In this document: one piece after another, positions 9,640 to 50,255 of the stretch | Layout: each line of letters opens with the position of its first letter | How positions within the stretch are numbered: position 1 is the first letter of the stretch | The notes under the pieces: model-generated | What the model saw: the letters and a program-made list of their open reading frames with translations, nothing else | Told to the model about the DNA's origin: nothing | Database searches by the model: none | Position numbers and translations under genes: made by a program | NCBI GenBank assembly: GCA_965279525.1 | Contig: CBDIIB010000005.1 | Span: forward strand, 1,407,018-1,471,017 | DNA: 64,000 nucleotides | Source of the DNA: Tagaea sp. | Lineage (GTDB): Bacteria; Pseudomonadota; Alphaproteobacteria; CACIAM-22H2 | Direction of reading: 5' to 3'

Positions 9640-10717
9640 GCTCGTCTGGCCGGGGCGCATGGAAGACGGGCGGCGCGTGCTGCGCTATGTCGACGCGCTG
9701 TCCGAGGCCGTGGCGCTGGAGATGGCGCGCGATCCGGGCGTGTTCGTGTTCGGCCTCGATGTCGACGATCACAAGGCGATCCAGGGTTCCACGCGCGGCC
9801 TGCTCGAGAAGTTCGGCGCCGGGCGCGTCTTCACCACGCCGCTTTCGGAAGACGCGATGACGGGTGTCGCCATCGGTGCCGCCATGGCGGGCATGCGGCC
9901 GATCCATGTGCATATCCGCATGGACTTCCTGATGCTGTGCATGAACCAGCTCGTCAACATCGCGGCCAAGGCCCGCTACATGTACGGCGGCCAGGTGAAG
10001 GTGCCGCTGGTCGTCCGCTCGATCATCGGCAAATCGTGGGGGCAGGGCGCCCAGCACAGCCAGGGCCTGCATTCGATGTTCATGCATGTGCCCGGGCTCA
10101 AGGTCTGCGCGCCTTCGAACGCGCACGATGCCAAGGGTGCGATGATCGCCGCGATCCGCGACGACAATCCGGTCGTGTTCGTCGAGCATCGACTTCTCTA
10201 TGCGACCGAGGCGTTCGTCGCCGAAGGCGCCTATGTCGTGCCGCCCGGCCGTTCGCGCGTGTGCCGCTGGGGCCGCGACGTGACCGTCGTGGGCATCTCC
10301 AACATGGTCGTCGAGGCGCTGCGCGCCGCCGAGCTCCTGAAGGAAGCCGGCGTGTCGGCGGAGGTAATCGACCCGATCTGGCTGTCGCCGCTCGACAGCG
10401 ACACGATCGTCGAAAGCGTGCGGCGCACGCGCAAGCTGCTGATCGTCGACAACGGCTGGAACATGTGCGGTGCGGGTGCGGAGATCGCCGCGCGCGTCGC
10501 CGAAGCCTGCGGGGACCTGCAAGTGACGATCCGCCGGATGGGCTTCTCGCCCACGCCGTGCCCGCCCTCGCCGATCCTCGAAGCGGCGTTCTATCCCAAC
10601 CCCGCCACGATCGCGGCCGAAGCGCATGCGCTGGCACGTCCCGGCGCGGCCGCGTGGGCGCCCGATCCATCGAGCGCGCAGCTCGCCTATCAGCTCCAGT
10701 TCAAGGGCCCGTTCTGA
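9626..10717 (+). CDS. TPP-dependent dehydrogenase E1 component, beta subunit (transketolase-like), with a roughly 35-aa C-terminal extension
   Basis: E1beta motifs are present (VFGLDVDD ... GSTRGLLEKFG ... TPLSEDAMTGVAIGAAMAGMRP). It overlaps the E1alpha stop by 14 nt. Confidence 0.85.
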   Translation: MSSHKLVWPGRMEDGRRVLRYVDALSEAVALEMARDPGVFVFGLDVDDHKAIQGSTRGLLEKFGAGRVFTTPLSEDAMTGVAIGAAMAGMRPIHVHIRMDFLMLCMNQLVNIAAKARYMYGGQVKVPLVVRSIIGKSWGQGAQHSQGLHSMFMHVPGLKVCAPSNAHDAKGAMIAAIRDDNPVVFVEHRLLYATEAFVAEGAYVVPPGRSRVCRWGRDVTVVGISNMVVEALRAAELLKEAGVSAEVIDPIWLSPLDSDTIVESVRRTRKLLIVDNGWNMCGAGAEIAARVAEACGDLQVTIRRMGFSPTPCPPSPILEAAFYPNPATIAAEAHALARPGAAAWAPDPSSAQLAYQLQFKGPF

Positions 10718-11892
10718 TGTTCTACGAACTCGCGACCCCCTCGTGGGGACAGGAGGAGATCGACGCCCTCCAGTCCGTCATCGCGTCCGGCCGCTTCACG
10801 ATGGGCGAAAGGGTCGCCGCGATGGAAGCGGCGTTTGCCGCCTATCACGGCAAGAAATATGGGGTGATGGTCAATTCCGGTTCGTCGGCGAACCTGATCT
10901 GCATCGCGGCACTCGCCTATCATTCGTCGCGGCCACTGGCGCGCGGCGACGAGGTGATCGTGCCGGCGATCTCGTGGAGCACGACCTATCATCCGCTTCA
11001 GCAGTACGGGCTCAAATGCCGGTTCGTCGACGTCGAGCTCGAGACGCTCAACATGGACGTCTCGAAGCTCGAGCAGGCGCTGACGCCCAAGACCAAGGCG
11101 CTGCTCGCCGTCTCGATCCTGGGCAACCCGGCCAAGCTCGACGAAATGCGCGCCTTCTGCGACCGGCACGGCCTGTGGTTCATGGAAGACAACTGCGAAT
11201 CCATGGATGCGGTCCTGCCCTCGGGCCGCAAGGCCGGCACGCTCGGCGATCTCAACACGTTCAGCTTCTTCTTCTCGCACCACATTTCGACGATGGAAGG
11301 CGGGATGGTGCTGACGGACGATCTCGAGCTCTACCATCTGCTCAAATGCATGCGCGCGCACGGCTGGACGCGCGACATCCCGCCGGACTCGCCGCTGTTC
11401 AAGCGCACCGCCAGCGACCATTTCGAGGCCTACCGCTTCCTGTTCCCGGGCTACAACGTCCGCCCGCTGGAGATGGAGGCGGCCGTCGGCATCGAGCAGC
11501 TCAAGAAGCTGCCGGCGATGACCGCGGCCCGGCGCAAGAACCTTGCGCTGTTCCAGAAGCATTTCTCGGGCGACGAGAATTTCATCATCCAGAAGGAGCA
11601 CGGGCAGAGCTCGTCCTTCTGCTTCACGCTGATCCTCAATCCGAAGAAGGATCTCGATCGCGAGAAGATCTTCGCGACGCTGAAACAGGCCGACATCGGC
11701 TTCCGGATCATCACCGGCGGCTGCTTCCTGCGCCACGACACGATCAAATACTACGATTACGACATCGTCGGAAACGGCGTGCCGAATGCCGAGCTGGCGC
11801 ACGACCGCGGCTTCTTCGTCGGCAACCATCCGCAGGACCTGAGCGTCCAGATCGAGACGCTGCGCAAGGTGCTGGACGGCGCAGTGCGCTGA
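10717..11892 (+). CDS. DegT/DnrJ/EryC1/StrS-family nucleotide-sugar 3-dehydrase (ColD/DdhC-like, PMP-dependent)
   Basis: The protein has the aminotransferase class V fold. In the SF(H)xxK..EGG motif the PLP-lysine position is occupied by His (FFFSHHISTMEGG), the hallmark of 4-keto-6-deoxy-sugar 3-dehydrases. At about 391 aa it lacks a C-terminal Fe-S Cys cluster, so it is ColD-like. Its ATG overlaps the E1beta stop. Confidence 0.75.
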   Translation: MFYELATPSWGQEEIDALQSVIASGRFTMGERVAAMEAAFAAYHGKKYGVMVNSGSSANLICIAALAYHSSRPLARGDEVIVPAISWSTTYHPLQQYGLKCRFVDVELETLNMDVSKLEQALTPKTKALLAVSILGNPAKLDEMRAFCDRHGLWFMEDNCESMDAVLPSGRKAGTLGDLNTFSFFFSHHISTMEGGMVLTDDLELYHLLKCMRAHGWTRDIPPDSPLFKRTASDHFEAYRFLFPGYNVRPLEMEAAVGIEQLKKLPAMTAARRKNLALFQKHFSGDENFIIQKEHGQSSSFCFTLILNPKKDLDREKIFATLKQADIGFRIITGGCFLRHDTIKYYDYDIVGNGVPNAELAHDRGFFVGNHPQDLSVQIETLRKVLDGAVR

Positions 11893-11893
11893 G

Positions 11894-12898
11894 CTAGCGG
11901 CTCTCCGTCAGGTCCGGCTCGTAGACGACGATGCGGCTGCCGTCCGCACCCGTCTTCACGTCGACCTCGATCAGGTCCTTGAGACGCTCGCGGATCGCGG
12001 CGCGCTTTTCCGGCGGTGCCACGAACGCGATGAATCCGCCGCCGCCGGCCCCCAGCAGCTTGCCGCCGACCGCCCCTGCCGCGATTCCCGCCTCGTAGAT
12101 CTGGTCGATCGTCGAGGTCGACACGCCTTCGGCAAGCTCCTTCTTCAGGCGCCAGCCGTCATGCATCAGCGCGCCGAGATCGAGCATCTGCCGGCCGGGG
12201 CTGGAGATGATCGCCTCGGCCTCGTCGACCATCTCGCGCATGCGATGCAGGTTCTTCTCCTTGGCACCCATGTTGGCGATCTGCTTGCTCGCCATCGCCA
12301 TCGCGTAGCGCGACAGGCCGGTGAAGAACAGCATCAGTGAGCCCTCGAGTTCCTCGCGCCGGGCCAGCGTCAGGATCAGCGGCTTGACCGAGAAGCTGCC
12401 ATCGATGCGGAAATCGATCCGGTTGAGACCGCCATAGGCCGCCCAGACCTGGTCCTGGCTGCCGACCGGTTCGCGGATGACGTGCTGCTCGATGCGGATC
12501 GCCTCTTCGGCGAGTTTGTGCTTCGAGATCATCTGGCCGCGGAGCGCATAGAGCGCGTTGAGCAGGCCGACCGTGAAAGCGGACGACGAGCCCAGACCCG
12601 AACGCGCCGGAAGGTCGCCGTCATGATGGATCTCCAGACCGCGCCGCTCCTTCTGGTCGAGCAGGACGGCCCGCACGGCCGGGTGCTCGATCTCGAGCAG
12701 GTCGTTGACCAGCTCGATGCGCGACCACACCACCCGATAGCGGTGCTCGAAGAACGGCGGAAGACGGCGCAGCGAGATGTTGCAGTACTTGTCGATCGCC
12801 GTGCCGATCACGGCGCCGCCATGCTGCAGGTACCATTTCGGGTAATCGGTGCCGCCGCCGAAGAAGGAGAGGCGGTACGGGGTGCGCGAGATGATCAC
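11894..12898 (-). CDS. GHMP-family sugar kinase (HddA / D-glycero-D-manno-heptose-7-phosphate-kinase-like)
   Basis: The GHMP motif DLPARSGLGSSSAFTVGLLNAL (PxGSGLGSSAA) is present. The N-terminus MIISRTPYRLSFFGGGTDYP is typical of the HddA/fucokinase clade, and there is a C-terminal GHMP_C domain. Confidence 0.7.
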   Translation of the reverse strand: MIISRTPYRLSFFGGGTDYPKWYLQHGGAVIGTAIDKYCNISLRRLPPFFEHRYRVVWSRIELVNDLLEIEHPAVRAVLLDQKERRGLEIHHDGDLPARSGLGSSSAFTVGLLNALYALRGQMISKHKLAEEAIRIEQHVIREPVGSQDQVWAAYGGLNRIDFRIDGSFSVKPLILTLARREELEGSLMLFFTGLSRYAMAMASKQIANMGAKEKNLHRMREMVDEAEAIISSPGRQMLDLGALMHDGWRLKKELAEGVSTSTIDQIYEAGIAAGAVGGKLLGAGGGGFIAFVAPPEKRAAIRERLKDLIEVDVKTGADGSRIVVYEPDLTESR

Positions 12899-40317: not shown

Positions 40318-40321
<4 letters not shown>

Positions 40322-41358
40322 TTGTCGAGGTCGATCCGGAAGGTCTTGCGGGGGTCGAAGGCGTCGCGCACCGCCTCGCCGACGAATACCAGCAGCGACA
40401 GCATGATGGCGAGCGTGAAGAAGGCGGTAAGACCGAGCCACGGCGCGCTCAGGTTGGATTTACCCTGCGCCAGCAGTTCGCCGAGCGAGGCCGAGCCGAC
40501 CGGCAGGCCGAAGCCGAGGAAGTCGAGCGAGGTCAGCGCCACCACCGAACCCGACAAGATGAAGGGCATGAAGGTCAGCGTGGCGACCATCGCGTTGGGC
40601 AGGACATGGCGGAACATGATGAGCGCGTCGGAAGCACCCAACGCCCGCGCCGCGCGCACATAGTCGAAGTTGCGCGCGCGCAGGAACTCCGCGCGCACGA
40701 CGCCGACCAGCCCCATCCAGCCGAACAGCAGCAGCAGGCCGAGCAGCCAGCCGAAGGTCGGCTCGACGAACGCGGCGAGAATGATCAGCATGTAGAGCTG
40801 CGGCAGCCCGTCCCAGATCTCGATGAAGCGCTGGAAGGCGAGATCGACCCACCCGCCGTAATAGCCCTGGATGGCGCCGGCGATGACGCCGACGATCGAG
40901 GAAAGGATCGTCAGCGTCAGGCCGAAAAGCACCGAGATGCGGAAACCGTAGATCAGGCGCGCGACGACGTCGCGCCCCTGGTCGTCGGTTCCCAGCCAGT
41001 TTTCGGCCGATGGCGGGGCCGGGGCGGGGACCGGCAGGTCGAGATTGACGGTGCGGTAGGAGAAACGCACCGGCGGCCACAGGATCCAGCCTTTCGCATC
41101 GATCAGTGCGGCGACTTCCGGGTCGCGGTAGTCGGCCGCCGTCTCGAATTCGCCGCCGAAAGCCGTCTCCGGATAGGCTTTCGCGAACGGGAAATAGAAG
41201 GCGCCGTCGTAGCGCACGAGAACGGGCCGGTCGTTGGCGATCAGCTCGCCGGCCAGCGACAGCCCGAACAGCGCCAGGAAGATCCACAGCGACCACCAGC
41301 CGCGCCGGTTGGCGCGGAAATTCGCGAACCGCCGGCGGTTGAGCTCGTCGAGCTTCAT
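40318..41358 (-). CDS. yejE: ABC transporter permease (YejE-like, peptide/opine type)
   Basis: This is a BPD-transporter-family permease. It is the C-terminal 346 aa of a longer frame-spanning ORF, and its ATG overlaps the yejB stop as ATGA. Confidence 0.8.
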
Positions 41359-42443
41359 TGGCGCCGCTCGAAATCGATGCGCGGATCGACGAACGTGTAG
41401 GCGACGTCCGACACGATCTTCATGACGAGGCCGAGCAGCGTGAAGAAATAGAGCGTGGCGAACATCAGCGGGTAGTCGCGGTTGATCGCCGCCTCGAAGC
41501 CGAGCAGGCCCAGCCCGTCGAGCGAGAAGATGATCTCGATCAGCAGGGAGCCCGTGAAGAAGATCGATACGAGGGCGGCCGGGAAGCCGGCGATGACGAT
41601 CAGCATCGCGTTGCGGAAGACGTGCCCGTAGAGCACGCGCCGCTCGGGCAGGCCCTTGGCGCGCGCGGTGATGACGTACTGCTTGCCGATCTCGTCGAGA
41701 AACGAGTTCTTGGTGAGCATGGTGAGGCTGGCGAAACCGCCGATGGTCATCGCCAGCACCGGCAGGACCATGTGCCACGCATAGTCCAGCGCCTGGCGCC
41801 ACCAGGGCATGTCCGCGAACCCTTCCGAAACGAGCCCGCGCAGCGGGAAGATGTCGAAGAACCGTCCGCCCGCGAACAGCACGATCAGCAGCACCGCGAA
41901 CAGGAAGCTCGGGATCGCGTAGCCCACGATGATGGCGCCGGACGTCCACACGTCGAAGCGCGTGCCGTCGCGCACGGCCTTGCGGATGCCCAGCGGGATC
42001 GACACGAGATAGACGATCAGCGTCGTCCACAGGCCCAGCGACAGCGAGACCGGCATCTTCTCGAGAACGAGGTCGACGATCGGCCGGTCCTTGAAGAACG
42101 AGCGGCCGAAATCGAATGTCGCGTACTTGCCGAGCATGGTGAGGAAACGCTCGACCGGCGGCCTGTCGAAGCCGAACTCGCGCTCGAGCTCCTTGATGAG
42201 CGCCGGGTCGATGCCGCGCGCCCCCCGGTAGCCCTGCTCGCCGGCGCGGGTCTCGCGCACCTGCACTTCCGAGCCGCCGCCGGAAACGCGCAAGGTCGGA
42301 TCGGTCGACACGCCGCGCAGCTCGGCCAGCACCACGTCGATCGGGCCGCCCGGTGCGGCCTGGATGATCGCGAAATTGACGACCATGATGCCCAGCAGCG
42401 TGGGCACGATCAGCAGCAGGCGTCGGAAGAGGTAGCCGATCAT
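41355..42443 (-). CDS. yejB: ABC transporter permease (YejB-like)
   Basis: [26 protein letters not shown] is a typical DppB/YejB N-terminus. Confidence 0.85.
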
Positions 42444-42452
42444 GCGTCTGCG

Positions 42453-44294
42453 TTACCGGCCGCGGCGCGCGCGAAGGGCGGCATCCTTGGCCGGGTCGAC
42501 CCACCAGGCCGTCCAGTCGTAACCGTTCTTGCTGGCCGTGGCAGGCCAGCCGAACCGGTCCCAGGCGGCCACGCGGTCGACGGCCATGTACCAGTTCGGG
42601 ATCACCCAATGGCCCCACTGCAGCGTGCGGTCGAGTGCGCGCGTGCGCTGGACAAGGCTCTCGCGGTCGGGAGCCGCGATCAGCAGCTCGACGAGCTCGT
42701 CGACGACGGGATCCTTGATGCCGACCGAGTTGCGCGAACCTTTCTGGTCGGCGCGGTCGGAACTCCAGAACTCGCGCTGCTCGTTGCCCGGCGACTCCGA
42801 CTGGCCCCAGCCGCCGACGATCATGTCGTAGTCGAAATCGTCGGTCCGGCTCTGGTACTGCGCGACGTCGATGCTGCGGATGCGCGCGTCGATGCCCAAG
42901 CGCTTGAGGTTCGCCACGAACGGGCCCAGCACGCGCTCGAAGGCGCTCTGGTTCTGGTAGATCAGGATCTCGAAGCCCATCTGCCGTCCGCTTGCGTCGA
43001 CCAGCTTCTGGTCGGCGATCCGCCAGCCGGCTTCGCGCAGCAGGCGCGTGGCTTCGCGGATGCCGTCGCGGATGTTGCCGGTCCCGTCCGTCTTCGGCGG
43101 CTGGTATTCGGTCGTGAAGATCTCCGGCGGCAGCTTGTCCTTGAAGCGCTCGAGGATCGCCTTTTCCTCGCCCTGCGGCAGCCCGCGCGCGGCAAGGTCG
43201 GAGTTGTCGAAATAGCTGCGCGTGCGCGTGTAGGAGTCGAAGAACAGGTTCTTGTTCGACCACTCGAAGTCGAACGCGTACCCCAGTGCCTGGCGCACGC
43301 GCCGGTCGTCGAAGGGCTTGCGCCGCGCGTTCATGACCAGCGCCTGCATGCCGGCCACGCGCTTTTCCGGGATCTCGATCTTGCGGAACAGCCCGTCGCG
43401 GAAGGCCGGCGTGTCATAGCCCTGCGCCCAGATGCGCGCGGTATTCTCCGCGCGCAGGTCGTAGTTGCCGGCAAGGAAGGCTTCCTGCGCGATGGTCGGA
43501 TCGCGGAACCATTCGTAGCGCAGCACGTCGAAATTATACCGGCCGCGGTTCGTCGCGAGATCGCGCGCCCAGTGATCTGCCACGCGGCGCAGGGCCACGG
43601 TGCGGCCCAGCTCGAAGCTCTCGATGCGGTAGGGGCCCGAGCCCAGCGGCGGCTCGGTCAGCGGCCGGTCGAACTCCTTGCCCTCCCACCATTTGCGCGA
43701 CAGCACGGGAACCTGGCCGACGATCAGCGCCAGCTCGCGGTTCACGCCGCTGCCGAAGACGAAGCGCACCTTGCGCGGCCCCGTCTTCTCCACCTTCGCG
43801 ACGTCGGCGTAGTAGGCGCGGTAGAACGGCCGGCCCTTGGACTTCAGCGTCTCGAATGTCCAGATGACGTCTTCGGGCTCGATGGCCGATCCGTCGTGGA
43901 ACCGCGCGCCGGGGCGAAGGGCAAACTCGACCCACGAGCGGTCGGCCGGTGTCTCGACCGTTTCGCAGATCAGGCAGTACATCGTGAAGGGCTCGTCGTC
44001 GGAGCCGACCATCAGCGTCTCGATCGTGAGGCCGACAACGCCCGAGGCCACGCCGCGGATGATCCACGGATTGAAGCTGTCGAAGGTGCCCACCGCGTGC
44101 TGGCGCACGTCGCCGCCCTTGGGGGCATCTGGATTGACGTGGTCGAAATTCCGGAAGCCGGCGGGATACTTGATGTCGCCGTGCATGGCGATCGCGTGCT
44201 TGGGGCCGGTGCCCGGCGCAAGGGTCTGGGCGCCCGCCGGCAGGGCGAACGACAGGGTCAGGGCGGCGGCAAGCAGGGGCAGGCGGACGGTCAA
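42453..44294 (-). CDS. yejA: Extracytoplasmic solute-binding protein, family 5 (YejA-like)
   Basis: The mature part is about 610 aa. A TTG start is inferred downstream of a GGGAG RBS, giving the signal peptide (M)TVRLPLLAAALTLSFALPAGAQT. Confidence 0.75.
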   Translation of the reverse strand: MTVRLPLLAAALTLSFALPAGAQTLAPGTGPKHAIAMHGDIKYPAGFRNFDHVNPDAPKGGDVRQHAVGTFDSFNPWIIRGVASGVVGLTIETLMVGSDDEPFTMYCLICETVETPADRSWVEFALRPGARFHDGSAIEPEDVIWTFETLKSKGRPFYRAYYADVAKVEKTGPRKVRFVFGSGVNRELALIVGQVPVLSRKWWEGKEFDRPLTEPPLGSGPYRIESFELGRTVALRRVADHWARDLATNRGRYNFDVLRYEWFRDPTIAQEAFLAGNYDLRAENTARIWAQGYDTPAFRDGLFRKIEIPEKRVAGMQALVMNARRKPFDDRRVRQALGYAFDFEWSNKNLFFDSYTRTRSYFDNSDLAARGLPQGEEKAILERFKDKLPPEIFTTEYQPPKTDGTGNIRDGIREATRLLREAGWRIADQKLVDASGRQMGFEILIYQNQSAFERVLGPFVANLKRLGIDARIRSIDVAQYQSRTDDFDYDMIVGGWGQSESPGNEQREFWSSDRADQKGSRNSVGIKDPVVDELVELLIAAPDRESLVQRTRALDRTLQWGHWVIPNWYMAVDRVAAWDRFGWPATASKNGYDWTAWWVDPAKDAALRARRGR

Positions 44295-44420
44295 GGCAAA
44301 GCTCCCTCGGGGCACGCAGGCGTTCCTTGTATCATGGCGCGAATGCACGGCAAAAAAAGGGCCGAATTGCATTCCCGGGGTATGCCATGCGACTTTCCGG
44401 GGCGGAGGAACTGCCCGGAA

Positions 44421-45191
44421 ATGACCCAGAAAGCACATGCGAACTACCCGAGCCTTGCCGGCCGGACCGTCTTCGTCACCGGCGGGGGTGGCGGTATCGG
44501 GGCCGCGACCGTCACCGCCTTTGCAGCACAGGGCGCCAAGGTCGGGTTCTGCGACATCCAGCCCGGCCCTTCGAAGGCGCTGGTCGCCGAGATCGCCGCC
44601 CGCGGCCAGACCGCCCATTTCGAGGAATGCGACCTTCGCGACATCGAAGCCTTGCGTCGGGCCGTCGCGGCCGTGCGCGCGAAGTTCGGGCCCGTCACGA
44701 TCCTCGTCAACAACGCGGCCCATGACGACCGGCACGATTTCCTCTCCGTCACGCCCGAATACTGGGACGACCGCATCGCGGTCAACCTGAAGCACGCCTA
44801 TTTCGCCGCCCAGGCCGCAATCCCCGACATGCGCGCGGCGGGCGGCGGCGCCATCGTCAATTTCGGCTCGGTCTCGTGGATGTCCGGCTCTGCCGATCTC
44901 TCGGCCTACGCGACGGCCAAATCGGCCGCGCACGGGCTGACGCGCGTGCTGGCCCGCGAGTTCGGGCCCGACAACATCCGCGTCAACTGCGTGGTGCCGG
45001 GCTGGATCATGACCCAGCGCCAGGTCGAGAAGTGGCTGACGCCGGAAGGCGAGAAGCTGATCGAGGAGCGCCAGTGCCTGAAGCGCAAGCTGGTGCCCGA
45101 CGACATCGCGCGCACGGTGCTGTTCCTGGCCTCCGACGAGGCGGGCGGGATCACCAACCAGTCGCTGATCGTCGATGGCGGCTGGGTCTAG
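44421..45191 (+). CDS. SDR-family oxidoreductase
   Basis: It has the motifs VFVTGGGGGIGAA, NNAA and YATAKSA (YxxxK). Confidence 0.85.
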   Translation: MTQKAHANYPSLAGRTVFVTGGGGGIGAATVTAFAAQGAKVGFCDIQPGPSKALVAEIAARGQTAHFEECDLRDIEALRRAVAAVRAKFGPVTILVNNAAHDDRHDFLSVTPEYWDDRIAVNLKHAYFAAQAAIPDMRAAGGGAIVNFGSVSWMSGSADLSAYATAKSAAHGLTRVLAREFGPDNIRVNCVVPGWIMTQRQVEKWLTPEGEKLIEERQCLKRKLVPDDIARTVLFLASDEAGGITNQSLIVDGGWV

Positions 45192-45974
45192 CTAGCCTGC
45201 CAGCAGACCCAGTGCCGCCGCGTGCGTGCGCCGGTCGCCGGCAGCGATCACGCGCCCGTCGCTCGAAAGATCGAGCCGCCGGCCGCGCCAGTCGGTCATG
45301 ATGCCGCCCGCACCTTCGATGACGGGGGCGACCGCCGCATAGTCGTAGACCTGCAGGCTGGCCTCGATGTCGAGATCGGCGAAGCCTGACGCGACGAGGC
45401 CGTAGGCGTAGCAGTCGCCGCCGTACATCGGCAGCTTGACCTTCTCGCGCACGCGCTCGAAGGCCGGGAAGTGTTCCTTGAACATCAGCGGCGACGAGCA
45501 ATAGAGCGTGGCGAGCTTCAGCTCCGCGCACGCGCGCACCTGCACGTCTTTCGTCGTGCCGTCGCGAAGGCGATGCGTCGTGCGCCGGCCCTTCACGCCC
45601 ACCCAGCGCTCGCCGACCGCCGAGCAGTCGATCACGCCAAGTTCGGGTACGCCGTCGATGGCGAGTGCGACCAGCGTGCCGAACATCGGCCGGCCGGAGA
45701 TGAACGACTTGGTGCCGTCGATCGGGTCGAGCACCCACACGCGGCCCGACGAAGCGCGCTCGCGCCCGAACTCCTCGCCGATGATGCCGTCTTCGGGGCG
45801 CTCGCGCGCGAGCATCTCGCGCATGGCCTGTTCGGCCCCGCGGTCGGCGATCGTCACGGGCGATTCGTCCGCCTTGTCGTCGACGGCGACGGCCGTGCGG
45901 AAATACTGGAGTGCGATCTTGCCGGCCGCGTCGGCAAGCCGGCCGGCAAGTTCGACGTCTGCGTCGGTGACCAT
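45192..45974 (-). CDS. Inositol-monophosphatase-family phosphatase (HisN-like histidinol-phosphatase / bisphosphate nucleotidase)
   Basis: IMPase motifs WVLDPIDGT and GGDCYAYGLVASG are present. Confidence 0.8.
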   Translation of the reverse strand: MVTDADVELAGRLADAAGKIALQYFRTAVAVDDKADESPVTIADRGAEQAMREMLARERPEDGIIGEEFGRERASSGRVWVLDPIDGTKSFISGRPMFGTLVALAIDGVPELGVIDCSAVGERWVGVKGRRTTHRLRDGTTKDVQVRACAELKLATLYCSSPLMFKEHFPAFERVREKVKLPMYGGDCYAYGLVASGFADLDIEASLQVYDYAAVAPVIEGAGGIMTDWRGRRLDLSSDGRVIAAGDRRTHAAALGLLAG

Positions 45975-47583
45975 ACTAACTAGCTCGATGCTTACGGTGG
46001 TTTGTCATGATTAGCAGTGAACCTTCGAATGTATGCTTCATGCGCTTTCGCAAGCAATGCTTAGATTGTGCTTCCCGCAATACTGAGTCATCGCGATCTA
46101 AAATCAACTGGCACCAACTAAAGTTGCGGGAAGGTAATTCGCAACGAGCAACAGGATAGTTAAGGAAACAGCGAGTATAGATAGCCCAACCGCAGACTCA
46201 GTTGCAGCGCTCTTGAGCCTGGATGTTCGCAAAATCCGCTGTCCAGTGTCAGATCGAACAGCTGCCGCAACCTCTTCTAACCAACCGCTGAGATTCCCAA
46301 TCGGTGGCGCAATGAGGTTGGATTTTTGAAATTTGGCGACTGCATCGCCATAAATATTCATTCTATTTAGTGCATGCTGTGCATTAAATGCGCGTTTGCG
46401 GATCCGCGGAGCGATTTCGCGGCGTATCAAACTGGCATCAACTTTATACTTAAGCGCGAGCATCGCTATACTTGGTGGTATGACGGATGAATCTAAGTCG
46501 ACGTCAAGGAGCCACGATACCGCCTCTTCAGGCTTTTCGTTGAGTAGCGCTGAGAGGAACCGTAGTATTTCATCGGTAAGTATAACTTCATCCGAATCGA
46601 CTGCGGACAATTCAATATCCCGGTAGTAGCGTGCCGACGGGATCTCAGATCCCACCTGAAACCTTTTCGACATTTCTGCACTATCAATTAGTCCGCGCAG
46701 AGCAGACCAAAATAGATCAGAAACACCTAACTTTATTTGCCTTGGCTCTTCTGATCTAGCAGTGTTGATGCCTTGGAGCGCTATTGCAATTCCTGCAATG
46801 AACGAAATCACCCCAGCAATAAACGTTAAGAACTTTGCCGGAAGCAGCACCGCTTCGGAAAGACCGATACGAGATGCAACAAGTGTGAATAGTGTTTTTT
46901 CGGTAGCAGCAACATCTGGGTAGGCAACCAAAGGCCAAGATATCCCCTCAATTCGTGCCGTAATCGATATCGTTCTTACGTCGATTCTTCCAGCAGCCAG
47001 AATTAAAAATGAAATCGAGTCATTCGAGTTTAGAAGGTTATGGGCAACTTCGATGCTCTTCTCATCATACTTCAATGAAGCGTCTAACCTTGGAGGATTG
47101 GTGCCAACTAGCTCCGCTTTAACAATGCGACCAGTCGAAAATTCTAACTTAACTGGCGCCTCGATTTCATTTTTACGGATTGATGATTTTCCGGTGTTTC
47201 TTAGGACAATATTGATTTGCGTCGGATCTTGGACGGGCTGCCCCAGATATCGAATCTCGATGTCAGCAGGCCGCGAAATCGCCGATGCCAAAAGGGACTG
47301 AGCTTGACTGATCTCGATAGTGATTTGCCGATTGGCGCTAAACTGATCTGCGACGTAGATATAAGCAGAGAAAATTAAAGTTAAAATTCCAGCCCATGCA
47401 CCTAACTTCTCAATCGACCGCTTGTCTATCGAGCTCCTGCCGGGTGCTGTTCCATTTTCGTCGGCCATCGATCACCGAGAAATTCTTATAGTTGTAACGT
47501 TATACTACAAAGTATTGAATGAAAATAGATATCGCCATTTCAAACCAAACCCGAAGAAATTATTTGATCGCAAAATTATCGAC
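45975..47583. other. Compositionally anomalous AT-rich island of about 1.6 kb, inserted between the hisN-like and hbd genes, carrying one orphan gene
   Basis: There is an abrupt drop in GC relative to both flanks, with AT-rich intergenic arms on both sides (46000-46100 and 47470-47580). No integrase or repeats were seen. Confidence 0.7.
46104..47468 (-). CDS. Orphan hypothetical membrane protein (3 predicted TM helices), low-GC, likely horizontally acquired
   Basis: The 454-aa ORF fills the island, and its codon usage is AT-rich unlike its neighbours. TM segments are near residues 22-43, 208-232 and 428-448. No known domain was recognised. Confidence 0.65.
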   Translation of the reverse strand: MADENGTAPGRSSIDKRSIEKLGAWAGILTLIFSAYIYVADQFSANRQITIEISQAQSLLASAISRPADIEIRYLGQPVQDPTQINIVLRNTGKSSIRKNEIEAPVKLEFSTGRIVKAELVGTNPPRLDASLKYDEKSIEVAHNLLNSNDSISFLILAAGRIDVRTISITARIEGISWPLVAYPDVAATEKTLFTLVASRIGLSEAVLLPAKFLTFIAGVISFIAGIAIALQGINTARSEEPRQIKLGVSDLFWSALRGLIDSAEMSKRFQVGSEIPSARYYRDIELSAVDSDEVILTDEILRFLSALLNEKPEEAVSWLLDVDLDSSVIPPSIAMLALKYKVDASLIRREIAPRIRKRAFNAQHALNRMNIYGDAVAKFQKSNLIAPPIGNLSGWLEEVAAAVRSDTGQRILRTSRLKSAATESAVGLSILAVSLTILLLVANYLPATLVGAS

Positions 47584-48456
47584 CTAGCGCGTTGGGACGG
47601 GCTTGGGCCCCGAATAGTCGTAGAAGCCGCGCTTGGTCTTGCGGCCGAGCCACCCGGCCTCGACATACTTCACCAGCAGCGGGCAGGGGCGGTACTTCGA
47701 ATCCGAAAGCCCGTCGTACAGCACATGCATGACGGCAAGGCAGGTATCCAGACCAATGAAGTCGGCAAGTTCGAGCGGGCCCATCGGATGGTTGGTGCCT
47801 AGCTTCATCGCCGTGTCGATCGATTCGACCGAACCCACGCCTTCGTACAGCGTGTAGACGGCCTCGTTGATCATCGGCAGCAGGATGCGGTTGACGATGA
47901 AGGCCGGGAAATCCTCGGCCGTGGCCGACGTCTTGCCGAGCTTGGCGGTCAGTTCCTTGACCTGCTCGTAGGTCTCGTTCGACGTGGCGATGCCGCGGAT
48001 CAGCTCGACCAGCTGCATGATTGGCACGGGGTTCATGAAGTGCATGCCCATGAACTGCGCGGGCCGGTCGGTGGAAGCACCCAGGCGCGTGATCGAGATC
48101 GAAGATGTATTGGAAGCTAGCAGCGCACTCTTCTTCAGGTGCGGGCAGAGCTTCTTGAAGATCTCGCGCTTGACCGCTTCGTTCTCGGTCGCCGCCTCGA
48201 TGACGAGGTCGGCATCGGAGAAGAGCGAGAAGTCGGTGCCTGTGGCGATATGCGCGAGCGCCGCGTCCTTCGCGGCCTGGGTCATGGCCCCCTTCTTGAT
48301 CTGGCGGTCCATGTTGCCGCCGATCGTCGCCAGCGCCTTGGGCAGCGCTTCGGGGTTGGCGTCGGCCAGCCGCACGTCGAAGCCGTTCATGGCGCAGACA
48401 TGGGCGATGCCGTTGCCCATCTGGCCCGCGCCGATCACACCGATCTTCTGGATCAT
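47584..48456 (-). CDS. hbd: 3-hydroxybutyryl-CoA dehydrogenase
   Basis: IGVIGAGQMGNGIAHV is an NAD Rossmann motif, and the 3HCDH N- and C-domains are present. Confidence 0.9.
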   Translation of the reverse strand: MIQKIGVIGAGQMGNGIAHVCAMNGFDVRLADANPEALPKALATIGGNMDRQIKKGAMTQAAKDAALAHIATGTDFSLFSDADLVIEAATENEAVKREIFKKLCPHLKKSALLASNTSSISITRLGASTDRPAQFMGMHFMNPVPIMQLVELIRGIATSNETYEQVKELTAKLGKTSATAEDFPAFIVNRILLPMINEAVYTLYEGVGSVESIDTAMKLGTNHPMGPLELADFIGLDTCLAVMHVLYDGLSDSKYRPCPLLVKYVEAGWLGRKTKRGFYDYSGPKPVPTR

Positions 48457-48478: not shown

Positions 48479-49420
48479 CTATTTGCGCGCCGGCAAGGCG
48501 GCCGTCAGCTCGGGCACGAGCTTGAAGAGATCGCCCACCACGCCGTAGTCGGCGATCTGGAAGATGGGCGCTTCCTCGTCCTTGTTGACCGCGACGATGA
48601 CCTTCGAGCCCGACATGCCGGCCAGATGCTGGATGGCGCCCGAAATGCCGATCGCCACGTAAAGATCCGGTGCAACTACCTTGCCGGTCTGGCCGACCTG
48701 GTAGTCGTTGGGCGCGAAGCCGGCATCCACGGCCGCGCGGCTGGCACCCACGGCGGCCCCCAGCTTGTCGGCGAGCGGCTCGAGATACGTCTTGAAGTTC
48801 TCGCCCGACGCCATGCCGCGTCCGCCCGAGACGACGATCTTGGCAGCCGTCAGTTCCGGGCGTTCGGACTTCGACAGTTCCTGCTTCACGAACTTCGTGA
48901 GGCCGCTTTCGGCGGCGCCCGCAGCCGCCTCGACCGGGGCCGAACCGCCGAGGGATGCGGCCGGGAACGCGGTCACGCGCACCGTGATGATCTTGATCGT
49001 GTCCTTGGACTGGACGGTCGCGAGTGCGTTGCCGGCATAGATCGGGCGCACGAAGGTGTCCGAACTCTCGACCGCGATGATGTCGGAGACCTGCATCACG
49101 TCGAGCAGGGCGGCCACGCGCGGCATCAGGTTCTTGCCCTGCGTCGTCGCGGCCATCAGCAGGTGCGTGCGGCCGGCGGCGAGCTTGACCAGCAGCGGCG
49201 CCATGTTTTCGGGCAGCGAATTGGCGAGCGACGCGTCGTCGGCATGCAGCACCTTGCCGATGCCGGCGATCTTCGCGGCTTGCTCGGCTACGGCGGAAGC
49301 ACCGGAACCGGCGACGAGCACGTCGACCGGCACGCCGAGTTTCAGGGCCGCGGAAACCGCGTTGAGCGTGGAGGGGCGCAGGGCCGAACCGTCATGCTCG
49401 GCGATCACGAGAGCGGACAT
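48479..49420 (-). CDS. etfA: Electron transfer flavoprotein subunit alpha
   Basis: The FAD-binding C-terminal domain ([15 protein letters not shown]) is present. Confidence 0.9.
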
Positions 49421-49421
49421 G

Positions 49422-50171
49422 TCAGATCACCTTCGCTTCGGTCTGCAGCTTCGTCACCAGCGTTGCGATGTCTGGCAGCTTGACGCCGCCGGCGCGCTTG
49501 GGCGGTTCCTCGACCTTGAGCGTGACGAGGCGGGGGGCGACGTCGACGCCGAGCGCATCGGGCGTCACCGTCTCGATCGGTTTCTTCTTCGCCTTCATGA
49601 TGTTGGGAAGGCTCGCGTAGCGCGGCTCGTTGAGGCGCAGGTCGGTCGTGACGACCGCCGGCAGCTTCGTGGAAATCGTCTCGAGGCCGCCGTCGACCTC
49701 GCGCACCACTTCCATTGTGTCGCCGGCGGGCGAGATCTTCGACGCGAACGTGCCCTGCGGCCAGCCCAGCAACGCGGCCAGCATCTGGCCCGTCTGGTTG
49801 CAGTCGTCGTCGATCGCCTGCTTGCCGAGGATGACGAGCCCGGGCTGCTCCTTGTCGACCAGCGCCTTCAGGCACTTGGCCACCGCGAGCGGTTGGAGTT
49901 CGCCGTCGCTCTGCACGAGGATGCCGCGGTCGGCCCCCATAGCGAGGGCGGTGCGCAGCGTCTCCTGGCACTGGGCAACACCCAGCGAGACCGCGACCAC
50001 TTCGGTCGCAATGCCCTTTTCCTTCAGGCGGACGGCTTCCTCGATCCCGATCTCGTCGAACGGGTTCATCGACATCTTGACGTTGGCGAGCTCGACGCCC
50101 GACTTGTCGGCCTTCACGCGGATCTTGACGTTGTAGTCGACAACCCGCTTGACCGCGACCAGCACTTTCAT
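49422..50171 (-). CDS. etfB: Electron transfer flavoprotein subunit beta
   Basis: [19 protein letters not shown] is a canonical EtfB N-terminus. The start is at the internal Met of ORF 49422-50186. Confidence 0.9.
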
Positions 50172-50255
50172 CTCGGAAATCCGCACCTTTCGAATGACGG
50201 CAGAAGGTGCCGGACAATAGGTGCTGGGCCGCTTTGCGTCAACGTGCCGGGCGGC

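Follow-up and report, generated by a model that had tools for sequence, protein, structure and literature searches.

A one-gene AT-rich islet between hbd and hisN in Tagaea sp. encodes a divergent member of a large, unannotated membrane-protein family

A 64,000-nucleotide (nt) stretch of the Tagaea sp. genome (contig CBDIIB010000005.1; the window hereafter) contains a 1609-nt AT-rich islet between the housekeeping genes hbd and hisN. The islet carries a single gene. Its 454-aa product, P0001, is a divergent member of a large, hyper-variable, unannotated family of membrane proteins which has so far not been described. The evolutionary and structural part of this account, namely a recent one-gene islet, membership of the family, and a layout of three transmembrane (TM) segments around a beta-sandwich and a helical region, has high confidence. 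The function is far less certain; the likeliest role for P0001, though itself doubtful, is that of a stand-alone conflict protein which acts at the level of the envelope, by superinfection exclusion or abortive infection.

The islet and the hbd-hisN junction

The GC content of 1-kb segments across the 64 kb is 0.63-0.72, except at 46001-48000, where it is 0.47-0.51; this is the sole such dip. In 300-nt segments, GC drops at about 45900 from 0.71 to 0.50; it then remains within 0.43-0.50 and rises again past 47550. Alignment by blastn with the nearest relative (locus L001), which is about 93% identical at the nucleotide level in both flanks, breaks at 45978 and 47584. Where the window has the insert, L001 has a single nucleotide between the stop codon of hbd and the start codon of hisN: the junction reads cgcTAG-C-atg in L001 and CGCTAG-[1609 nt]-ATG in the window. 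The islet and its flanking genes are laid out as follows.

45975-47583, unstranded: AT-rich insert, 1609 nt (GC profile, empty sites L001-L013, blastn breakpoints)
46104-47468, minus strand: coding sequence (CDS) of P0001, 454 aa, divergent full-length member of the unannotated three-TM family (open reading frame list, third-position GC, HMMER, hhalign)
47469-47583, minus strand: 115-nt AT-rich 5' non-coding part, presumed to be the gene's own promoter region (sequence)
45975-46103, minus strand: 129-nt 3' non-coding part (sequence)
45980-45989, unstranded: edge motif CTAGCTCGAT, which holds the 5-nt direct repeat CTAGC (edge comparison)
47578-47587, unstranded: edge motif ATCGACCTAG, which overlaps the hbd TAG stop codon (edge comparison)
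45192-45974, minus strand: hisN-like flank gene of the inositol-monophosphatase family (Pfam Inositol_P on the L091 ortholog)
47584-48456, minus strand: flank gene hbd (3-hydroxyacyl-CoA dehydrogenase)
48479-49420: etfA, which precedes hbd
49422-50186: etfB, which precedes hbd

The only long open reading frame (ORF) within the GC dip is 46104-47468, on the minus strand. A run of 454 stop-free codons would arise by chance with a probability of about 9e-12 at the base composition of the islet, and real homologs exist; the ORF is therefore a gene. GC at its first, second and third codon positions is 0.53, 0.44 and 0.44, whereas third-position GC (GC3) is 0.88-0.91 in hisN, hbd, etfA and etfB. The gene is co-directional with etfB-etfA-hbd upstream and with hisN downstream. 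An earlier note, made from the sequence alone, had described an AT-rich island between a hisN-like gene and hbd which carried one 454-aa minus-strand ORF with A/T-rich codons within a co-directional housekeeping run (hbd-etfAB, hisN). The GC profile with its exact blastn boundaries, the GC3 values and the ORF list agree with this description.

The junction was compared in 80 loci encoding hisN relatives, taken from species-representative genomes. In the 13 closest (L001-L013), where hisN is 73-98% identical, hbd is the gene immediately upstream, with 1-10 nt between the hbd stop codon and the hisN ATG. Since the sites of these relatives are empty and the breakpoints are precise, the islet is an insertion specific to this strain or lineage, in a gene pair that is otherwise tightly coupled. 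No further member of the family is found elsewhere in the window or in any of the 80 loci, and exact-sequence look-up of P0001 and of hisN returned no additional contigs. The same junction is occupied in a more distant genome, GCA_006365155.1 (L091, VFQN01000067.1), where a homolog, P0002, is encoded in the same orientation. Gene order there is etfB-etfA-hbd-[P0002]-[HepT/MNT, convergent]-hisN, an arrangement seen again in the independent Logan assembly L092. The junction is thus filled in two and empty in 13 of the 15 genomes with hbd and hisN flanking it. Protein identity between L091 and the window is 86% for hbd and 60% for hisN but only 28-30% for the cargo, and the non-coding parts of the two islets have no nucleotide-level similarity. 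The P0002 gene has a GC of 0.454 and a GC3 of 0.42; GC3 in the surrounding genes is 0.82-0.90. A HepT-like toxin and MNT nucleotidyltransferase antitoxin pair lies between the P0002 islet and hisN (L091 11403-12253); its GC is host-like, and its MNT matches the PADLOC candidate system PDC-S09.

Horizontal acquisition of the islet, as the earlier note had proposed, is well supported, because the sites of 13 relatives are empty, codon usage is foreign, and the family gene is lower in GC than its surroundings in 14 of 14 loci. With 13 closer relatives empty and the position shared by a single distant genome, the gene is not one which the whole family keeps at this position with the same composition, the condition that the earlier note had named as refuting acquisition. 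Recurrent acquisition or exchange at a hotspot accounts better than vertical descent for homologous but very divergent cargo that remains un-ameliorated at one junction in two lineages, because 13 closer relatives are empty and descent would need many base-precise losses. An ancestral gene which was inherited vertically, diverged quickly and was precisely lost in most lineages would account for homologs at the same junction and in the same orientation in two genomes, and is nevertheless very unlikely. It would require several independent deletions restoring stop-N-start in 13 genomes, one of them 93% identical at the nucleotide level. It would also require GC3 to have stayed at 0.42-0.44 in hosts with a GC3 of 0.82-0.91, with no amelioration in either lineage, and cargo proteins to have fallen to 30% identity while flanking proteins kept 60-86%.

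An ENA/JGI contig of 1277 nt, which encodes an identical hbd protein, stops 4 nt past the hbd stop codon. The break of the contig at this very point may be a sign that natural populations are polymorphic for the presence of the islet. It also implies that assemblers break at this junction and, together with a source that is possibly a metagenome-derived assembly, could point to low-GC DNA chimerically joined into a high-GC contig. Such an artefact is extremely improbable: the foreign DNA fits exactly between a stop and a start codon, the contig is 1.87 Mb long, the analogous L091 arrangement is also present in L092, and the ORF is a bona fide family member.

Identity to L001 is 89-90% in the 100 nt on each side of the junction, compared with 91-98% in most segments further away. 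Within about 100-176 nt of the islet (47584-47760 and 45875-45974, compared with L001-L009), L001 is no longer clearly the closest relative; L004 is 96% identical at the hbd 3' end. The lowered identity to L001 could reflect a short recombination tract imported with the islet, or weaker constraint.

The edges of the islet were searched for signs of its route of entry. The nearest tRNA genes are at 1357 and 60603, more than 13 kb from the islet, and the window contains no others. The islet has no integrase because it has no second gene. An integrase-mediated island was rejected, given a sole ORF which is not an integrase, no nearby tRNA gene, and the 5-nt CTAGC as the only repeat. The possibility of an integron cassette was dropped because the attC core sequences RYYYAAC and GTTRRRY are missing from the 129-nt 3' and 115-nt 5' regions. 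The motifs CTAGCTCGAT and ATCGACCTAG form a 9/10 inverted match and have the CTAGC direct repeat in common; the chance probability is 1-4%, which is borderline. CTAG is rare outside the islet (0.24/kb). There is no transposase in the islet and no second copy of it within the window. The edge repeats would fit either a target duplication of 3-5 nt or microhomology-mediated insertion, but are not conclusive. The absence of integrase and tRNA genes described in the earlier note thus stands, and its absence of direct repeats has to be qualified by the CTAGC at both edges.

A promoter scan of the 115-nt 5' part gave no consensus sigma-70 match, an Rfam search of the non-coding edges gave no match, and no intrinsic terminator was found between the P0001 gene and hisN. 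It is possible that transcription reads through into hisN; hisN would still be transcribable because the islet gene is co-directional and no terminator precedes hisN.

On the other side of hisN, overlapping ORFs of 981, 1277 and 826 aa occupy both strands of the window at 40318-45191. These are the usual stop-poor artefacts of 68% GC DNA. Only the C-terminal part of the 1277-aa ORF is presumably real; judged by eye from a GGGGIG dinucleotide-binding motif, we take it to be of short-chain-dehydrogenase type. This putative gene ends at 45191 and is convergent with hisN.

The P0001 family and its domain layout

P0001 has no match in Pfam or PADLOC, and its matches in NCBIfam and PHROGs are at noise level. 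A word-indexed search of 5.8 billion proteins returned P0001 itself only, and family alignments used as queries recovered almost nothing either; two of these, A1 and A5, were so diverse that they could not serve as seeds in searches for loci. An exhaustive HMMER search over 1.84 billion cluster representatives gave a different picture, with 911 relatives at E<=1e-3 and 35 at E<=1e-10. One of them, P0002 (459 aa), is homologous over its full length, with 30% identity and E=2e-52. The second-ranking hit, P0003 (6458 aa), was discarded as an artefact in which about 25 near-identical 229-aa tandem repeats, worth about 5 bits each, are summed; it is a caution for the reading of summed HMMER scores. 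The family hidden Markov model (HMM) matches P0001 at E=9e-60. In hhalign, P0001 and P0002 together align with a 16-member subfamily at 99.8% probability over residues 19-446, and homology is therefore full-length. The description of the gene as an orphan in the earlier note is thus superseded.

Scans of 68 family members gave no Pfam, NCBIfam or PADLOC assignment for any of them. Matches to PHROG 29378, whose function is unknown, occur in 47 of these members, with a best E of 1.9e-15, and cover the region from the beta-sandwich to the second TM segment. This likeness has its limits, in that the PHROG carries no functional annotation and P0001 itself scores only E=0.05. Among 30 members whose 90% clusters were looked up, 26 are singletons and four are in clusters of two; one to four contigs carry each of them. 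Diversity within the family is therefore extreme, and its distribution is thin. Sequence and profile searches of the PDB returned TM-segment noise only.

Hydropathy places the TM segments of P0001 at residues 22-40, 203-221 and 425-443. The same order is common to the 68 members: TM1 is followed by a beta domain of about 150 aa, then by TM2, a helical part whose length varies, and a last TM segment at the C-terminus. The earlier note had likewise seen helices near both termini and in the middle of the protein, with no recognisable domain; the hydropathy and the lack of a Pfam match agree with this. The parts of the P0001 gene, with the arms of an inverted repeat discussed below, are as follows (AF2, AlphaFold2; K/R, lysine and arginine).

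47349-47405, minus strand: TM1, residues 22-40 (hydropathy, K/R counts, AF2 helix 14-43)
46914-47336, minus strand: beta-sandwich, residues 45-185, predicted periplasmic, with motifs NTGKSSIRKNEIEAP and HNLLNSNDSISF
46755-46862, minus strand: TM2, residues ~203-238 (hydropathy 203-221, AF2 helix to 238)
46209-46754, minus strand: variable alpha-helical region, residues 239-420, predicted cytoplasmic (AF2 helices, K/R bias before TM3)
46131-46208, minus strand: TM3, residues ~421-446, followed by a short C-terminal tail (hydropathy, AF2, K/R counts)
47004-47019, unstranded: inverted-repeat arm, encodes DSISFL (family motif 2)
47160-47175, unstranded: second inverted-repeat arm, encodes KNEIE (family motif 1)

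Two motifs characterise the beta domain of the family, N[TS]GxxPIxxxD[IVF]ExP and HxLLNPGDxIxF. Their counterparts in P0001, NTGKSSIRKNEIEAP and HNLLNSNDSISF, are degenerate: N91, G93, I97, L145, N147, D150 and R172 are retained, and the PI and PG positions are degenerate. An AF2 model built with a 148-sequence alignment has a mean predicted confidence (pLDDT) of 77, with residues 45-185 above 94 and the helical region at 40-85; a single-sequence model (pLDDT 35.7) was discarded. Foldseek comparison with the PDB returned carbohydrate-binding modules (CBM2, CBM3) and RsgI biomass-sensor modules at E ~1e-4. The beta-sandwich also resembles cohesin and adhesin modules. Comparison with BFVD returned uncharacterised viral proteins only. 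The best fold matches are mostly extracytoplasmic binding modules, and the likeness is at the level of a generic fold only.

The K/R counts before and after the TM segments of P0001 are 4 and 1 for TM1 and 4 and 0 for TM3, and the family mean around TM3 is 2.4 vs 0.8. Because of this bias, we infer an N-in topology, with the beta-sandwich periplasmic between TM1 and TM2, the helical region cytoplasmic, and TM3 closing the protein. P0001 and P0002 are 43% identical in the beta domain and 19% identical in the helical region.

The P0001 CDS also contains a perfect inverted repeat (16/16 nt) with a 140-nt spacer. A repeat of this length was never reached in 2000 codon shuffles, the longest repeat among them being 14 nt, and it arises at P=2e-4 when synonymous codons are resampled with the protein fixed. 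Inverting the segment in place keeps the frame open, as do 12-35% of arbitrary inversions. The inverted isoform drops half of the family HMM score, its beta-sandwich core would be disrupted, and the corresponding protein is absent from the 5.8-billion-protein collection. Six homologous genes have no 16-nt repeat. The repeat could be an inverton, an mRNA stem (-18 kcal/mol), the by-product of a template-switch mutation, or a coincidence. A miniature inverted-repeat transposable element inside the CDS was dropped as its source because the segment between the arms encodes the conserved beta-sandwich core. Validated intragenic invertons have repeats down to 11 nt (Chanin et al., bioRxiv 10.1101/2023.03.11.532203). 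P0001 resembles the recoding type in that its perfect repeat pair lies wholly within the CDS and the frame stays open after inversion. It differs in that its homologs have no repeat and no invertase was identified.

Genomic contexts and nearest known systems

Fourteen independent family loci were examined. The family gene is lower in GC than its surroundings in all of them, by a mean of 12.9 points, and no conserved partner gene occurs across the 14. In four loci the gene is solitary within a housekeeping cluster. One is the hbd-hisN junction of the window. In L094 (8001-9230) a low-GC member lies 15 nt past a sucC-like gene, and in L101/L102 (L101 8001-9251) a member with a GC 25 points under its surroundings lies between plsY and pyrC-pyrB. 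In L083 (299-1504) a low-GC member is wedged into a conserved housekeeping cluster; on reading alone, we take the gene before it, an ORF with a Cys-rich C-terminus, to be ribonucleotide-reductase-like and the gene after it to be an alpha/beta-hydrolase.

Toxin-antitoxin modules adjoin family members in four loci. Besides L091, these are L095 (PIN, Phd and RHH genes plus a C5 methylase), L098 (TacA/GNAT, an integrase and Rep_trans) and L099/L100 (Gp49/HI1420 and a Y1 transposase). A member adjoins insertion sequence (IS) transposases in L081, so that mobility genes adjoin members at three loci (IS, integrase/Rep, Y1 transposase). Family members behave like self-contained accessory genes, often found in flexible, toxin-antitoxin-rich or mobile genetic element (MGE)-associated regions and sometimes alone in housekeeping operons. 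In L096, an 898-aa protein with a PHP domain and faint matches to SMC_N/AAA_21 ATPases is encoded at 10088-12784, two genes from the member P0010; its architecture may be reminiscent of nuclease-ATPase defence proteins.

One member is encoded by a phage. Microcystis phage Mae-JY22 (PP438414.1 7298-8131; L093 6935-7768) has a 277-aa member which is annotated as hypothetical and matched by the family HMM at E=1e-48. It is the only plus-strand gene amid a minus-strand run, beside and divergent from an N-acetylmuramoyl-L-alanine amidase gene, and its GC is 0.57 vs 0.67 for the phage. A literature search on Mae-JY22 and on beta-sandwich exclusion proteins found nothing.

Phage morons and superinfection-exclusion membrane proteins (Sie- or Imm-type) are solitary, AT-rich membrane-protein genes which need no partner. 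The Mae-JY22 gene resembles them as a lone opposite-strand gene in a tailed phage with a GC 10 points below that of the phage genome. The family differs from them in being rare in sequenced phages, and no sequence or fold similarity to characterised examples was found. RsgI-type anti-sigma sensors (PDB 4b97, 4b9p) likewise have a membrane-anchored extracytoplasmic CBM3-like beta-sandwich. Unlike RsgI, P0001 has no anti-sigma domain or adjacent sigma factor gene, and its sandwich is clamped between two of three TM segments; the match to RsgI modules (E ~5e-4, identity 9-16%) is at generic fold level.

The junction itself can be compared with cDHS1 and cDHS2 of Pseudomonas aeruginosa, which are defence hotspots flanked by core genes, with variable cargo of median 6-26 kb (Johnson et al. 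2023, PMC10250203). The hbd-hisN junction resembles these in holding cargo between core genes with variable occupancy; cargo of unknown function and frequently missing mobility genes are shared traits. Unlike cDHS1 and cDHS2, it has only two known occupied instances, with cargo of 1.6-2.4 kb, and no validated defence system was seen there. Of the two occupied sites, only L091 has more than the family gene, namely the HepT/MNT pair, in which MNT matches the candidate PDC-S09.

Candidate functions of the P0001 family

If P0001 is an envelope-level conflict protein, its predicted periplasmic beta-sandwich would bind an envelope or incoming ligand, and the protein would block entry of a genome or MGE at the inner membrane. 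Alternatively, signalling via the TM bundle and the helical region might compromise the membrane. The genes would spread by recombination into permissive housekeeping-operon junctions, where a co-directional insert without a terminator would preserve hisN expression. On the broadest version of this reading, the family (at least 900 clusters at 50% identity) would comprise self-sufficient single-gene envelope immunity proteins acting through a membrane-clamped periplasmic beta-sandwich. They would circulate as AT-rich islets and have used the hbd-hisN junction at least twice, and the present copy would perhaps be switched by inversion at the 16-nt repeat. Taken as a whole, this version is unlikely.

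A defence or exclusion role of the family is plausible but circumstantial. The earlier note had proposed the gene as a candidate for such a role, and it remains one on account of the HepT/MNT pair at the same junction, the three further toxin-antitoxin neighbours and the phage member. Several observations weigh against the role. Neither P0001 nor any of the 68 family members has a significant PADLOC-DB v2 model match, and fold likenesses are generic only. At tblastn sensitivity, 72,556 plasmids gave no member of the family (P0001 and P0004 as queries), and of 50,697 phage records a single one has a member, with no match to P0001 itself as the query; scans of IMG/VR with subfamily A3 and phage-protein patterns gave no match. 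The 14 family loci were read without a background control, and any flexible region commonly has toxin-antitoxin and IS genes. Neither an integrase nor attC was found at the insert, and the one repeat at its edges is a borderline 5-nt one. The positive-inside signal is ambiguous at TM1 and TM2 across the family. Finally, the predicted periplasmic domain is conserved and the cytoplasmic part is variable; this is the reverse of what a simple receptor arms race would produce, and is in keeping with a generic ligand in the envelope.

It should be noted that a non-conflict function in the envelope is nearly as likely as an exclusion or abortive-infection role, although by itself it is doubtful too. 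P0001 would then be an accessory protein with an anchored carbohydrate- or peptidoglycan-binding module for sensing, anchoring or niche adaptation, and would be found in flexible regions merely as a dispensable gene. The beta-sandwich, with its likeness to CBM2/CBM3, cohesin, adhesin and RsgI biomass-sensor modules, fits such a function, as do a periplasmic domain that is the conserved part across very different hosts, the lack of a defence model match, and several loci with housekeeping neighbours only. A sensor, however, would be expected to signal through a sigma factor, kinase or transporter, and no such partner gene is present. Extreme sequence turnover, lasting AT-richness and presence/absence polymorphism are more typical of conflict genes, and a phage carries a member as a moron-like gene. 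The protein could also be a relic of a prophage or other mobile element, such as a lysis-associated or holin-like membrane protein or the orphaned immunity partner of a membrane-acting toxin, which stayed on when the remainder of the element decayed, and might be silent here. The PHROG 29378 relatives, the amidase gene beside the phage copy, a weak match of one member to a holin PHROG, and the failure to detect a consensus promoter upstream all lend something to this explanation, which is distinctly unlikely. The P0001 ORF is intact over 454 codons and that of P0002 is intact too, the insert has exact boundaries and no other element remnants, and many family loci are without any phage genes. 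Holins are usually shorter than 150 aa, have 1-4 TM segments, and are encoded adjacent to and co-oriented with the endolysin gene. Identity as a holin was rejected, as members are 277-454 aa long with a 150-aa beta-sandwich, far exceeding holins, and the Mae-JY22 gene is divergent from the amidase gene.

Some consequences are the same whatever the function of P0001. A gene GC below that of the surroundings and solitary wedging into tightly coupled housekeeping operons can serve as discovery heuristics, and a protein which seemed an orphan in curated libraries and in word-indexed search turned out, by exhaustive profile search, to have more than 900 relatives, which is a caution for other such genes. 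The islet is probably a further example of hotspot cargo. Should a function in the exclusion of phages or MGEs be borne out, the family would be a large single-gene membrane-level defence family which annotation with Pfam, NCBIfam and PADLOC has overlooked, and the hbd-hisN junction of Tagaea-like Rhodospirillales would be a core-gene-flanked hotspot whose cargo could be mined.

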